This document shows, piece after piece, positions 30,963 to 64,000 of a DNA stretch of 64,000 nt. The stretch is taken from positions 4,774,001 to 4,838,000 of the forward strand of contig OZ024751.1 in assembly GCA_964016885.1 (NCBI GenBank). Reading direction: 5' to 3'. Numbering within the stretch: the stretch's first letter is position 1; every line of letters begins with the position of its first letter. Position numbers and translations under genes: made by a program. The stretch comes from Eledone cirrhosa. Its lineage: Eukaryota. The notes beneath the pieces were generated by a model. That model made no database searches, had not been told where the DNA came from, and saw nothing but the letters and a program-made list of their open reading frames with translations.

Positions 30963-31092
30963 TAGGAAAAAGTATGACCCCGACGGCAGAGCTCAAACCG
31001 TTTCGACGGCTATTTCTGGACTCTACTACCCTAAGTATTGAGTACTCTGGTGCGTTATGGTCCATCTGGTTCCTTACCACAATTCCTTTCTT
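30963..31092. mobile_element. Family A inverted-junction mini insertion in (TA)n
   Basis: Antisense half-ribozyme piece (30963-31020) joined through an ACT microhomology to the sense tail CTCTACTACCCTAAGTATTGAG...; (TA)n on both sides. Confidence 0.65.
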
Positions 31093-31140
31093 ATATATAT
31101 ATATATATATATATATATATAAAGAAACATATATATATAT

Positions 31141-31727
31141 ATAGTGAAAAATTGAACGGGAACAAAACAGAGAGGCAGTACGAACAAAGGTTTATTAATT
31201 TCACGCTCTTGAGAGTGGGGTGGTGGTGGGGAACGACGTTTCGGGCATAAGCCCTTCTTCAGGTGAAAAGTGTGTGGGAAGAGAGTTCAAAGGGTGTGTA
31301 GGGGAGTGGTGGAGAGACATATAGCAAAAAGGGGGTGAGAGAAAACGGTGCAAATGAAATAAAAAAAAAGGCATGATCAAAATAAAATTAAAATGGAGTA
31401 AAACAGGTGGTGGAAGGGTGTGGGGCGTGTAGGGGTGGTGGCGGGTGGAGTGGGGAGAGGGAGACGGGGTGTCCAAGCGGGGAGGGCTGAAGGTGGTGAG
31501 TGTGTGTAGGTGTACGTATGTGTGTGTGTGTTTATGTGAAAGCAAGGGTTGGGGGAAGAACGGGGTTGCATGTTCAGGAAGAGGTGTGTGTGGGGTGGGG
31601 TGTAGGTCGGAGTGTGTGTGCGTGTGTGGATAGAGGATTCCGGAGGCTGAATGTGTAAATATGTGGTGGTACGCACGTGTGTGTGTGGTGTTTATGCGTG
31701 TTGTGGATGTAGGTGGCGTGTGGGGAA
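31141..31727 (-). repeat. 3' pLTR of Neptune element
   Basis: Near-identical to 35359-35960 and 41675-42250. Confidence 0.9.
31233..31265 (-). ncRNA. Minimal type I hammerhead ribozyme motif
   Basis: Minus: CUGAAGA-A-GGGC-UUAU-GCCC-GAAAC-GUC; core boxes, 4-bp stem II and palindromic ACGU stem III as in PLE minimal hammerheads. Confidence 0.8.
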
Positions 31728-32708
31728 AAAAATTTTTTTGGGTGTATGTCCGGGGGTGAGTCGTAAAGGTAATTCCGTAAAAGGATGTGGTGGAATGCTG
31801 AGAAAAATCCTGGGATGCGGTAGATTCTCGGGATCAAGGTTCACATATGTGTAATCCGTGAAGAGATTGGTCGGAAGAGAGATGTGGGGTGCGCGCTCAA
31901 CAGGAAGTGGTCAGAGGGTCAAGGCAGGAGGAGGGTTGTGTGTCTGTGTGTGCGGGGAGGTGGTCAGAGAGGCATAGCAGCAGTAGGGTAGAATGGTAAG
32001 TGAAGGTGTGTCAGTGTGTGCGGAGGTGCAGTGGACAGGGGAGAGGATGGGTAGGTGTGAAAGTTGGAGTGAGGAGGGGTTGTGTGTGTATTAGTAGAGG
32101 TGTTAGTGGGATGTGTGAGTGTTTGAGAAAGGGTGTGGGTGGAGCGGGGAGAGAAGGGTGTGGGGGCTGATGGAGGGAGTGTAGTGTACTGGTGTGTGTG
32201 TGTGGTGAAGGGGGTGTTAGTGGGTGTTAGTATACTGGAGGTGGAGAAAGGGTTGAATGCGGGTGTGAGTGGGGGTCAGTGGTGGTCGGGTGTGTAGAGT
32301 GGGTGGTGTAAGAGGGTGTGTGTGTTCGTGTGCGTTAGGTTGGGGGTGTTAGTGATGTTAGTTGCGTGTAGAGTAGGTGGTGTAAGTGGGTGTGTGTGTT
32401 CGTGTGCTTGGGATCAGGGGGTGTTAGTGATGTTAGTTGCGGGGTGGTGGGGTGGATGTGTGGGGGTGAGGGTTAGTGGTGGTAGTAGGGTGTGTGTTTA
32501 GTGTGAGCGCGTGTATATATGTACCGGTGTGTGTGTGCGTGTGATAAGGAGGGGGGAGGAGAAGAAGGGAGGGATGTTAGTATGTTAGTTGGGGAAGGGT
32601 GGTCGGATGTGGGGTGGAGGTCTTAGTATTGTTAGTTGTGGGGTGGGCGGTGAAAAGGAGGGGTGTGTTAGTGGGGGATATGTGTGGGGATAGGGGGGCA
32701 GTCGAAGG

Positions 32709-60042: not shown

Positions 60043-61581
60043 CCTACGAAGTTCGATTTAGGTAGACTTAGTAAAAGGATTCTTGATAGAATTATACCTG
60101 AAATTAGAAGTTTGACCCCTCTTGCACTGTGGAACAATTCTTTCGCGGTGATTGATTGGTTCAACGGCATATGCAACAAGGAAAATTGCCGTTTTACCCA
60201 ATTCGACATCAATAATTACTACTCCTCCATCACTTTACCACTTCTCCTTAGAGCTATCAATTTCGCTAAAACACTCACAGTGGTTAAGAATTTCGAAGTT
60301 GATGTCATCCTCAATGCCCGTAAGTCGGTGATTAATTTCGACGACTCTATTTGGATTAAAAACTCTAATAGTACCCCATTCGACGTGAGTATGGGGGCCA
60401 GCGATTCTGCGTAGGTTACTGATCTGATCGGCCTTTTCCTTCTTTTCTCTATCCAGGAAGAATTCCCCAACGTGGGCGGTGGTTTGTACCGTGATGATGG
60501 TCTTTCGACCATGACTAAGTGCGGCCCACGTGCTTGCGACAGGTTCAGAAAAGAACTCACAGCATTCTTTAAAGGCTTCAACCTCTCCATACAGGTTGAG
60601 GCCAACCTCTCGGTCGTTAATTACCTCGACGTTACCCTCAATTTATCGAATGGCTTGCATTACCAGTATAGAAAACCGAATGATACGCTTAATTACATAA
60701 GTAAGCATTCTAACCATCCTGCCAGCATAACCAAGAACCTGGTAAGAAACGTTTCTTTGAGACTTTCCCGTCTATCTACTAACGAGCATATTTTCAACGA
60801 CCATTCCACATACTACAATGAAGCTCTTGCTCGGAGTGGATTTGTCGATAAGGTAGCATATACAGAGTACGAGAATAGATCTAGAAGAAATAGATCCCGA
60901 CGCATTATATGGCATAACCCACCATATAATATGAAGGTGGCCACACCATTAGCTAAGATCTTTCTCTCCCTTATTATAAAGCATTTTCCCCCTACACATA
61001 AATATAGTAAAATTTTTAATAGAAATACTATTAAAATTTCTTACTCTACGACTCCTAACCTTGCACATAACATCGCAGCTTCAAATTTACCTAAACTACC
61101 TAGCCGTAGGAACACGTGCAACCCTGTAGTTAGTACTAACTGTAATTGTAGGAATCGGATTGATTGCCCCCTATCCGGGAAATGCCTCTCTAGTAACATT
61201 GTCTACAAATGTAAGGTTGAAACACCCACGTCCCGTAGGGCCTACATAGGGTTAACCGCCATTAGATTCAAGTAGCGTCTTTACATGCATACCCATTCTT
61301 TTCGAAACCCTTTAAGAAGGAATATGACGTCACTTTCAGCTTGTATCTAGAGTCTAAAAGACAACCACACCCAATATAAGTTACACTGGGAGATCCTAGC
61401 TAGAGCTAGCTCGTATAACGGAAATAAAAGACCATGTGACCTCTGCGCCGCTGAGGCCCTGGAAATACTCTACGCCAAAGACCACATCTTAAACAAAAAA
61501 TCTGAGGCAATTTTGGCTTGTAATCATAAATTGCACAAAACTTTCCTGTATTACAGCCCCACATTATACCCTAACGGATAG
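60043..61581 (+). pseudogene. Naiad-type PLE RT plus GIY-YIG, 5'-truncated, three in-frame TAG stops
   Basis: FDINNYYSSI, FDVSMGASDSA*, GLYRDDGL, YLDVTLNL, SNHP, IWHNPPY, CNCR...CPLSGKC, AYIGLT, CDLC, CNH; one frame throughout. Confidence 0.93.
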
Positions 61582-62080
61582 TACGAACTATACGCGGATA
61601 TTTTACGTCTTAATGTGGTAGCTTACTTATTTGTATAGGTAAGTATATATTACCTGTATGTTTTGTGAAGGTACATATACTTTCTCGTACGTATATTTGA
61701 TTGTATATGTTATGGCGTATATATTATATATTCTGGTGCATATGCTTTTGGTTATGTGTATACGTGAGTTTTGCGTCTGTGTTCGTACGTATTTAGGGTG
61801 TGTGTATATATGTACTTTGTGTTTTGGTTGACGTACGTCTCCGAACATATGTGTATTTACATGTAGGTATGTGTGTGCGCTTGTTATATACGTATTTATT
61901 TATTTATATACGTTTATTTAATTATATGTATACACGCACGCACACACACACACACACACACACACACACACACACACACACACACACACACACACACATA
62001 TATATATATATATATATATATATATATATATATATATATATATATATATATATATATATATATATATATATATATATATA

Positions 62081-63993
62081 AATTAATAAAATAATGAATA
62101 AACAAAGAAACAGTTCCTTATATTAAAAAATTCATCATTTTACGATCGTTTCTAGGATATATATGTTAGTGTTGGTATGCATATCCTATAGATCTATGTA
62201 AAATTTTTACAAACTATCAGAGGGAATATACATACCTACACATATATATGCTGTCTTCAGAAATAATTATATTTGTTTATTGAAAAAAACCAACAAAGAT
62301 TTAATACAATAGGTCTGTTTGGGAACAGGTTTTGAATTGACCAATAGAAAGATAGTGAAGGTCAAGATGGTAAAATAGTAGTAAAAGAACCTTAATTTAT
62401 GGGTAGAGGAAGGTAGATTTCAGTTATGGATGGAAAGAATATTATGAATGAAAGATTATTTTAGGTATGAAAATAGGTCATATGCTGACCTCAGAAATAA
62501 TTATATTTGTTCATTGAATAAAACCAACAAAGATTTAATATAGTAGGTCTGTTTGGGAACAGGTTTTGAATTGACCAATAGAAAGGTAATAATTGGCCAA
62601 ATGGTAAAATAGTAGTAATGGAAGTTTATTTTAGGGGTAGAAGAAGGCAGATTTCAGTTTTGAATGGAAGGAGTATGAAGAATGAAAAGGTTATTTTAGG
62701 GGTGAAAATAGGTCAGGTCAGTAAGAGGTACACGAAAAGTTGCTGTTATAAAAGAATAATGCCAATGTAAATATCTAAGGAGGCTAAAATTTTACGATAA
62801 AAGTGTTAGTGAAAAAAATATATATGGAATTTACATCTATGAAAAGAATAAAAATTAATTTAATTGATGGGTATATTTATATTGATAAAATTATATTAAT
62901 GCATATAGATATGATAAATAAGAGTTAGATGTAATTGAAGAGTGCTATTAAAGACGAGGGGAAATTAAAAAAATATAAAAAGAATATATATATATATATA
63001 TATATATATATATATATATATATAAATAATTATTGGGGCGGGGGTTAAATTTATTAGTGAGAAATAATAAATATATAGAGATTTCAAAGAACATAGAATC
63101 ATAACCTGAAATTAAAACATTATATATGTTTACTTAATGGTATCAATTTTAGGAAAAGATAGTTGTAAGAAGGAAAGTAAAATTATGTAGTTCATCAGTA
63201 GTAGAATATTAATTATAGGTTAACTAAATTAAAAAAGTTTTTATATTAATTTCTAAAATGTATATTAATTAGGTTTATAATATTTAAAGGTTTTTCTCAA
63301 TTTATGATTACACGATATTATTAATTCCTGTCGCTTATTTAATAGGATATCCTTAGATTTCATTATTTCAAAAAGTTCTTGGGAACACAATCTACATTCA
63401 TATCTATTATTTTGATAAGGGGTGGCCCTTTTGAGCACACTCCAGGTCAGGTCATATTCTATATTCCTCTTTCTATAATTATTACCTTTCTATTGGTCAA
63501 TTCAAAACCTGTTCCCAAACAGACCTACTATATTAAATCTTTGTTGGTTTTATTCAATGAACAAATATAATTATTTCTGAGGTCAGCATATGACCTATTT
63601 TCATACCTAAAATAATCTTTCATTCATAATATTCTTTCCATCCAAAACTGAAATCTACCTTCCTCTACCCATAAATTAAGGTTCTTTTACTACTATTTTA
63701 CCATCTTGACCTTCACTATCTTTCTATTGGTCAATTCAAAACCTGTTCCCAAACAGACCTATTGTATCAAATCTTTGTTGTTTTTTTTTCAATAAACAAA
63801 TATCATTATTTCTGAAGACAGCATATATATATGTGTAGGTATGTATATTCCCTCTGATAGTTTGTAAAAATTTTACATAGATCTATAGGATATGCATACC
63901 AACACTAACATATATATCCTAGAAACGATCGTAAAATGATGAATTTTTTAATATAAGGAACTGTTTCTTTGTTTATTCATTATTTTATCAATT
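62081..63993. repeat. Long inverted repeat (~515-bp arms) with internal ~234-bp tandem duplication
   Basis: 62081-62594 is the near-exact reverse complement of 63477-63993; the left arm abuts (TA)n; half-hammerhead UAGGAUAU...AUAUCCUA-GAAAC-GAUC-GUA. Confidence 0.88.
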
Positions 63994-64000
63994 TATCTTG

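Follow-up and report, generated by a model that had tools for sequence, protein, structure and literature searches.

The window analyzed here is a stretch of 64,000 nucleotides (nt) of Eledone cirrhosa DNA (GenBank assembly GCA_964016885.1, contig OZ024751.1, positions 4,774,001 to 4,838,000 of the forward strand), whose (TA)n tracts harbor short head-to-head inserts ending at two fixed positions of their source sequence. In related loci, the two ends lie beside the two copies, H1 and H2, of a tandem, covarying RNA hairpin. The inserts are 5'-truncated insertions of Penelope-like elements (PLEs), likely of the Hydra clade. We consider it probable that an RNA carrying the tandem hairpins, each docking the reverse transcriptase (RT)-endonuclease, sets the starts of reverse transcription 0-8 nt 5' of them, and that both strands of the (TA)n target act as primers. 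The layout of the inserts is already known; the new part is the duplicated, covarying hairpin that marks both ends in Hydra-like PLEs.

Ten two-armed inserts are present in the window: three of family A (30963, 51269, and 51503), two of family B (47596 and 55790), two of family C (41627 and 44000), and those of families D, E, and F. When all pieces are aligned in the sense of the hammerhead ribozyme, every insert is made up of a tail-less arm that stops at a family-specific site (site 1) and of a partner whose outer end (site 2) lies 50-87 nt beyond. An earlier reading of the sequence, hereafter the initial annotation, had claimed that the inverted arm stops at the same internal point within a family, and the endpoints of A, B, and C indeed agree across copies. 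In family A, site 1 is the same base at 30963 and 51503; the arm is at most 3 nt short at 51269 (or carries a point change) and at most 3 nt long at 52982. The ends of family B at 47731 and 55926 are identical, and those of family C at 41627 and 44000 coincide, a few nt beyond the motif first quoted. Tails, first put at 60-100 bp, measure 79 nt in A, 65 in B, 87 in C, 57-65 in E, and about 50 in D; that of F is deduced from just 4 bases at the window edge.

The extent to which the arms overlap varies. Four inserts are symmetric hairpins and D is nearly symmetric; in two (30963 and 55790) the arms do not overlap, and in three (C at 41627, E, and F) the tail-less arm is much longer. Thus, of the common hairpin-plus-tail layout initially described, the two-site arrangement stands, but only 5/10 inserts are true hairpins and 52982 is a lone arm. 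The symmetric copies of family A span 51269-51469 and 51503-51711, the latter with a 7-nt center and site 1 at 51630-51632. At 30963, the tail-less inverted arm (30963-31022, minus strand) contains the 3' half of the hammerhead and ends at site 1 in (TA)n, and the tail arm (31020-31093, plus strand) starts with the first base of H1, with a 3-nt junction overlap, a 6-nt gap to site 1, and no overlap with its partner. In family B, a symmetric hairpin (47530-47731) is centered at 47660-47665 on a native 4-nt palindrome, and the insert at 55790-55926 joins the last 36 nt of the tail (minus strand) to a tail-less arm (55826-55926, plus strand). In family C, a tail-bearing arm (40956-41194, minus strand) faces a tail-less arm (41195-41633, plus strand) about 290 nt longer and ending at site 1; a near-symmetric hairpin with its tail occupies 43578-44003, with its center at about 43832. 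The family D hairpin (45025-45319) has a 32-nt spacer. The family E insert (37290-38032) places a long tail-less arm (about 37290-37921, minus strand) head-to-head with a short tail-bearing arm (about 37940-38032, plus strand), and that of family F (62081-64000) does the same with a tail-less arm (62081-63476, minus strand) and a shorter arm (plus strand, from 63477) that leaves the window. Arms of either kind are also found alone (30834, 52982): a tail-bearing arm of family A at 30800-30945 (minus strand), 5'-truncated in hammerhead stem II, and a tail-less one at 52916-52983 (plus strand), ending at site 1 in (TA)n.

A TA microhomology at the fixed internal end, also part of the initial annotation, is found in 7/7 families. 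Tail-less ends share 3, 2, 5, 6, 2, 3, and 4 alternating A/T nt with the (TA)n flank in families A to G, respectively (Fisher p about 6e-5), as judged where a read-through copy shows the native sequence and by comparison with the frequency of such runs in each arm. The (TA)n flanks are seen at both ends in family A reads; that of the family B copy at 47731 is very short.

The pattern RCTC...GAGYRC was noticed just 3' of element ends. It was studied in relatives, that is, in 80 of 299 related loci from metagenome contigs of other organisms, fetched with an RT alignment and labeled L001 and so on. In these loci, an RNA hairpin of the form RCTC-stem-UY-GAGY, with a bulge, occurs twice in tandem between the hammerhead and the start codon. 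The pattern gives 105 sense and 17 antisense matches in the 80 loci, against 10-23 per shuffle. Among 103 anchored matches, 85 are classed as H1 or H2 and 18 are unclassed, so that H1 is present in 43/80 loci, H2 in 34/80, and both in 32/80. H1 begins 36-68 nt past the hammerhead GAAA, the H1-H2 spacing is 59-83 nt (30 loci listed; class rule 50-95), and an ATGG follows H2 by 15-43 nt in 32 of 36 H2 copies. The order of the parts is parent ORF, hammerhead, H1, H2, and start codon.

In the upper stem of the hairpin, which lies outside the search pattern, Watson-Crick pairs number 62, 47, and 37 among the 68 unique copies; shuffles average 36, 18, and 17, and 0/5000 reach the observed values. 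Since the sequences are related, these counts are not probabilities. Pairing works only with a 2-nt 3' bulge, for which the first pair is 91% Watson-Crick, vs. 1-18% for bulges of 0, 1, 3, or 4 nt. Exchanges in the upper stem include C-G/U-A and A-U/U-A/G-C/C-G. In a 44-row alignment (40 loci and four window copies), 97.7% of the cells are paired, vs. 22-56% with slid partners, double changes number 41 vs. 14.5, and in the four window rows the outer G-C becomes A-U. The H1 model built in this way matches 5/5 tail-bearing copies of family A, family B, and both copies of family C, four of these being training rows. The matches lie at 30852-30883, 51392-51423 (plus strand, degenerate), 51638-51665 (plus strand), and 56114-56145 in A, at 47568-47595 (minus strand) in B, and at 41016-41043 and 43639-43666 (minus strand, degenerate) in C. 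The copy at 51638-51665 has a 4-bp stem, the 2-nt 3' bulge, and a 4-bp upper stem. In 52 further loci, 38 of 39 matches are on the sense strand and the remaining one is in an inverted arm. Rfam gave no match to the hairpin in the six loci tested, no metagenome stretch matched the family A pattern, and no relative was found in viral contigs.

Element ends are placed with respect to these hairpins. Site 1 precedes H1 by 5, 4, and 2 nt in A, B, and C, respectively, and 11/17 read-through ends in the loci lie 0-5 nt 5' of a hairpin (five at H1, six at H2). Among 25 cases in which a hammerhead is followed by (TA)n, eight end where H1 is expected and lack H1, nine include H1 and extend to 51-68 nt beyond its start, and two read through a TA run at a site. 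One locus (L023) carries a near full-length two-armed insert, in which the inverted arm ends 3 nt before H1 and, by comparison with L010, the sense copy ends some 4 nt ahead of H2. L051 and L065, two-armed as well, each have a short inverted arm with one end 6-8 nt before H2 that halts at or in H1; the short site-2 arms at 30963 and 55790 and the read joints at 51641-51673 halt there likewise. Lone tail-less copies are represented by 52982 and by eight metagenome ends.

Other observations concern the same loci. Long arms halt inside H1 or just past site 2, at about one unit length, in L054:130-180, L017:562-614, and L051:340-400, as a circular or tandem template would give. In L001:2518-2527 and L014:455-472, read-through copies contain a long stretch of TA placed exactly on site 1 or site 2, as though insertion had occurred at the elements' own start sites or the run had expanded there. 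In L047 and L058, one (TA)n tract is shared tail-to-tail by two different PLE families.

Family A was followed in sequencing records by mapping onto window:51525-51722, in the insert at 51503, at 80% likeness, in four of eight listed runs (one contig set and three sets of restriction-site-associated DNA (RAD) reads, from one organism). Between 16,161 and 24,877 records mapped per run, RAD read counts not being copy numbers. Among the best six loose ends of each run (729 more were recorded), a 3' loose end inside the arm at 51632, followed by (AT)n, occurs in 4/4 runs (167 contigs; 1116, 1350, and 1179 reads), and a variant loose end at 51618, which continues to that point, occurs in each of the three read runs (799, 556, and 734 reads). 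At 51712, about 97-99% of the reads have T, i.e., the tail end is followed by (TA)n. Hence, the two sharp outer endpoints that had been predicted exist in family A, at 51632 and 51712, both flanked by (TA)n. The strand changes in 10 of the 15 joints listed (20 more were found), each time at a different place. One of these 10 joints is symmetric on a GATC palindrome. In the other nine, which are asymmetric, the start of the tail arm lies at -27, -19, -17, -5, -4, +10, +17, +27, and +42 nt relative to site 1; the short side of two joints is 33 and 32 nt long, which equals the distance to site 1 exactly. Breakpoints lie within about 10 nt of each other at 30963 and in 3/9 asymmetric read joints (51626, 51627, and 51641), the others being 17-42 nt off or fully overlapping. 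The read copies behind the joints are 10-20% diverged, and position 51571 recurs in joints because the homology of the reference ends there. In the window, microhomology at inversion joints amounts to the 3 nt at 30963 and the 4-nt palindrome at 47660. Most of the common read variants in the H1 of family A affect the loop, the bulge, or the last base.

The state of the hammerhead differs between families. It is whole in B (55854-55896, plus strand, within the tail-less arm) and C (41148-41090), reduced to its 3' half in the short family A inserts, degenerate and whole in the family A parent, degenerate in E (near 37490-37525), and represented only by core motifs in F; none is recognizable by motif in D. 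The idea that all families carry a whole or half hammerhead is therefore not confirmed in its initial form. A strict hammerhead grammar has two exact matches in the window vs. 0-1 in 30 shuffles; it missed B, E, F, and G, whose motifs are thus called by eye. Rfam scored no hammerhead in the window, only low-complexity or generic hairpin matches, those of the miRNA type all below the gathering score. At the motif level, a sense-strand type I hammerhead is present in 55/80 relatives, often with the T-T base of stem II seen in family B. Two roles of the ribozyme were considered, and neither is retained. The hairpin center of family A is not a natural hammerhead stem II, as about 2000 reads per run have a different, non-symmetric sequence upstream of 51571. 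A location of inner ends at the hammerhead cleavage site is not supported either, as the arms of A, B, and C pass through it. At the edge of stem I, inner ends are seen in L027 and L065; that of B at 47660 comes close, but those of A and C do not.

Assignment to the Hydra clade is based on motifs; families B, C, D, and E have no linked open reading frame (ORF) in the window. Family A continues upstream into a parent fragment (56072-57396, minus strand) with its tail, H1, a degenerate hammerhead, a 3' untranslated region, together with a C-terminal GIY-YIG-type endonuclease (EN) ORF (56953-57396) that is 40-52% like neighboring ORFs. Family F includes a Hydra-like EN end (63271-63474, minus strand) inside its tail-less arm. 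The PLE parent initially supposed is thus supported by both families. CxCX5C occurs in the ORFs at 46920 and 60415, DKT in the 58792 ORF, and CxxC plus CxH in three ENs, including that of the A parent, which is cut before the linker; only RW/RL-x-x-H was seen in EN when the RWK motif was sought. Pfam, run on eight ORFs, matched two, both below the cut-off (GIY-YIG at E 0.006 in one). Hydra-clade PLEs described by Craig et al. (2021, PMC8557442) are alike in their C-terminal GIY-YIG, CxCX5C, DKT, CxxC plus CxH, hammerhead in the pseudo-long terminal repeat (pLTR), and (TA)n target. In the portions of that article consulted, no conserved hairpin is described and a tail of 30-40 bp is attributed to EN resolution, whereas the tails are 50-87 nt here and would correspond to the H1-H2 spacing. 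The portions of its supplement searched contain octopus entries only as Naiads.

From these data, the following route may be drawn. The endonuclease would cut both strands of (TA)n in one event, and each cut 3' end would pair over 2-6 nt with a UA-rich spot beside a hairpin on which the protein is docked. The cDNA started at site 2 would copy the tail and then either stall at or in H1, giving non-overlapping arms, or continue, either by displacement or with another RNA or pLTR unit as template, giving overlapping arms. For full overlap, displacement is needed, or else a second RNA or a template that is tandem or circular. The cDNA started at site 1 would run through an uncut or re-ligated hammerhead, which would be present in the short inserts because it lies just upstream of site 1. 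Host end-joining would finally unite the cDNAs head-to-head, at times at a native 4-nt palindrome and thereby as a perfect DNA hairpin, and the tail would equal the H1-H2 spacing. Two independent cDNAs are indicated because arms may be non-overlapping and because tail-less arms hold sequence that their partners lack. The programmed twin priming suggested in the initial annotation thus keeps its fixed internal end and its two independent cDNAs, and gains a candidate cis-element in the tandem hairpins. It loses the start at the RNA 3' end: the second start is another internal site, just before H2.

Several results weigh against this route. Half of the two-armed inserts of the window overlap fully, unlike what plain twin priming on one RNA gives. 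The H1 model has no match in families D, E, F, and G, though these have the same layout, and H2 is not visible for A, B, and C because the window copies end before it. In the relatives, 35/80 loci have no classified hairpin (many contigs are short), 6/17 read-through ends are not at a hairpin, and 6/25 hammerhead-to-(TA)n cases fit neither end class. As to covariation, the number of pairs with a double change is not above shuffles (183/500), the invariance of the lower stem is partly due to selection by the pattern, and the relatedness of the sequences limits what shuffles can tell. The tail end of family E, the one window tail end with a read-through copy, has no TA overlap. Junctions were predicted to be scattered with microhomology: they are scattered, but overlap is 0 in 9/10 of the opposite-strand joints listed and 3 nt in one. 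Finally, the starts used in vitro by a PLE of another clade, Poseidon, are not homologous to the cut DNA (PMC11167929).

A broader proposal, which we put forward tentatively and with more doubt than belief, is that twin priming is the normal, hard-wired route of PLEs. The duplicated hairpin would load an RT-endonuclease dimer and UA pairing would be telomerase-like, giving the tail, the inverted pLTR, and partial tandems, perhaps from a hammerhead-circularized RNA. Other PLE clades would then use duplicated motifs of their own; by eye, the printed Poseidon template has two GGC-N6/7-GCC units 41 nt apart, and the Neptune-like copy of the window has two GCTCA units separated by 43 nt. It may be added that the arms of L051 and L054 terminate close to the point at which a complete circle would be closed.

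According to a different scenario, a single cDNA primed at the tail end would fold back, or the RNA would prime itself, the inner site being an endonuclease cut that resolves the intermediate and the hairpins being cut marks. Four of the 10 inserts are symmetric and centered on short palindromes, both arms of the family C copy at 43578-44003 have the same GAAA-to-CAAA core change, and published accounts interpret palindromes as self-priming (PMC3846280) and the tail as EN resolution (PMC8557442), at least in the portions consulted. However, fold-back cannot copy sequence that the partner lacks, and the tail-less arm holds such sequence in 5/10 inserts and in the nine asymmetric read joints listed; later deletion in palindromes could account for some of this asymmetry. 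Moreover, lone tail-less copies exist, a zero-loop 4-nt palindrome would be unable to fold on itself but would let two cDNA ends pair, and in vitro both tail borders are RT starts (PMC11167929). We therefore regard fold-back as unlikely.

Each arm could also come from an ordinary target-primed event at either site, pairs arising from a later, second event at the same break or tract. The single arms of both kinds, the unrelated families sharing one TA tract in L047 and L058, and the head-to-head joint of different families within 57397-61925 are as expected from separate events. In contrast, no (TA)n separates joined arms, and both arms come from one family in 10/10 inserts, with one end at each site; among the two-armed inserts of A, all three match in subfamily. 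The arms are 75-98% identical, and 6/7 measured pairs reach at least 89%. A general origin from separate events appears improbable.

Still less credible, in our view, is that the short inserts are non-autonomous units, transcribed and re-copied by PLE proteins, notwithstanding the abundance of family A in each run, the existence of known non-autonomous PLE derivatives, and family E, a non-coding hammerhead tandem. Junctions differ between copies, the inserts end before H2 and are thus devoid of the hairpin of the second site, and the 51503 insert has not been amplified as a unit, because only 1-6 reads cover its junction. The same depth speaks against regarding the MITE-like DNA hairpins of the initial annotation as families spreading as units. 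Ordinary miniature inverted-repeat transposable elements (MITEs) that belong to a DNA transposon and duplicate a TA target, a duplication that (TA)n itself would mask, are evoked by short inverted repeats in a TA context but can practically be dismissed: the outer ends, site 1 and site 2, are different sequences and not inverted copies of each other, the junctions scatter, the parent is an RT/GIY-YIG element, and no transposase ORF was recognized among the listed ORFs of the window.

Twin priming of L1 was originally described in 2001. As proposed here, a second target end primes internally with microhomology in L1 and the cDNAs are joined head-to-head, often with adjacent breakpoints (PMC2912911, PMC11702581, in the parts consulted). 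L1 uses its second site opportunistically and has poly(A) as the first, whereas both sites are fixed, internal, and hairpin-marked here, and full arm overlap is common. Among PLEs, the inverted 5'-truncated copy, the one-sided tail, and the (TA)n bias were already published (PMC8557442). Close to the proposed route is the Poseidon element PAc of Anolis, as studied in vitro (Frangieh et al., 2024, PMC11167929): its tail is bracketed by two RT starts, each strand of the target is nicked and extended, uncleaved RNA serves as the template, and a dimer is predicted. PAc belongs to another clade, with starts in an AC-rich stem loop, and the text of that article, as consulted, offers neither a twin-priming model nor a duplicated cis-element. 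Penelope of Adineta vaga likewise shows a head-to-head inverted pLTR, an optional tail, and junction palindromes, explained in the sections consulted by self-priming on antisense RNA (Arkhipova et al., 2013, PMC3846280). The non-overlapping or longer tail-less arms of the window do not agree with this as a general route.

PLE hammerheads, a circular-template proposal, and retrozymes have also been published (PMC4209133, PMC7229834). Non-LTR retrozymes are non-coding, pLTR-derived, and have a type I hammerhead (PMC7229834; bioRxiv 10.64898/2026.07.22.740005, as consulted in part). Family E resembles a partial tandem unit of this kind, and it is possibly a retrozyme-like passenger of another PLE clade, since it combines a 430-nt non-coding hammerhead tandem and the two-site layout with the lack of H1. 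Retrozymes form head-to-tail arrays of units that each have a whole hammerhead. In contrast, the A to D inserts are head-to-head single events, many with half a ribozyme, and E consists of 1.5 tandem units that have a single degenerate motif. The literature search retrieved no twin-priming model for PLEs and no tandem hairpin; its scope was outside the Penelope papers of 1997-2008, Repbase reports, and supplementary figures.

How PLEs, the closest relatives of telomerase RT, come to insert with a tail and an inverted repeat is presented as an open question in the texts consulted (PMC11167929, PMC8557442, PMC3846280). A duplicated 28-nt hairpin with both ends beside its copies makes programmed twin priming directly testable. 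If the proposal is true, the long-puzzling tail of PLEs is explained, and the hairpin is the minimal cis-signal of an RT writing on both strands of a (TA)n site. It also provides an annotation marker for the ends of Hydra-like PLEs, and a reason not to label such DNA hairpins as MITEs or miRNA precursors.

The rest of the window holds further PLEs. Family G is assigned as a separate Neptune-like partial tandem (31142-35961, minus strand), with RT, a CX5CxxC linker, a YIG motif, a minimal hammerhead in the pLTR, and an upstream partial tandem copy at 35361-35961 (minus strand). Its 5'-truncated copy at 41675-43466 (minus strand) has a tail-less end identical to that of 31142. In its read-through sequence (35300-35361, minus strand), two GCTCA units are seen by eye 43 nt apart, each 8-12 nt after TATA. 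A 5'-truncated Hydra-like PLE (46780-47510, minus strand) has a CxCX5C linker, GIY-YIG, CxxC, and CxH. Two more Hydra-like fragments, of different families, occupy 57397-61925 and meet head-to-head at about 59875, with an RT showing DKT and YRDD, a CxCX5C linker, and EN. Together with the A parent, three Hydra-like pieces of different families therefore abut without (TA)n over 56072-61925, two of them head-to-head; template switching or two-RNA priming in one event could account for these joins. The sequences at 47740-48260 and 59879-60033 are 79% alike over 159 nt and probably represent the N-terminal part of a Hydra-like ORF. Two further single-arm hammerhead stubs of other families are found at 44834-44890 (with an intact core) and 45447-45495, both on the minus strand.

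Positions 1-30620 form a 29-bp satellite array of at least 30.6 kb, with copies about 97% alike, beyond which repeats are dense in the window and (TA)n tracts numerous. The repeat content and one protein match at 47% identity suggest an octopus as the probable host. The 51503 insert is directly followed, over 51720-52840, by an array whose units, of about 78-80 nt, are made of (TA)n and (CT)n pieces. A short GC hairpin that ends in CTAG ahead of (TA)n is present in three copies (37237-37262, 48790-48812, and 51158-51180); we take it to resemble Helitron 3' ends. Finally, the fragment at 49540-50300 is presumably the C-terminus of an APE-type LINE ORF, and a short repeat is found at 49529, 50420, and 50896.

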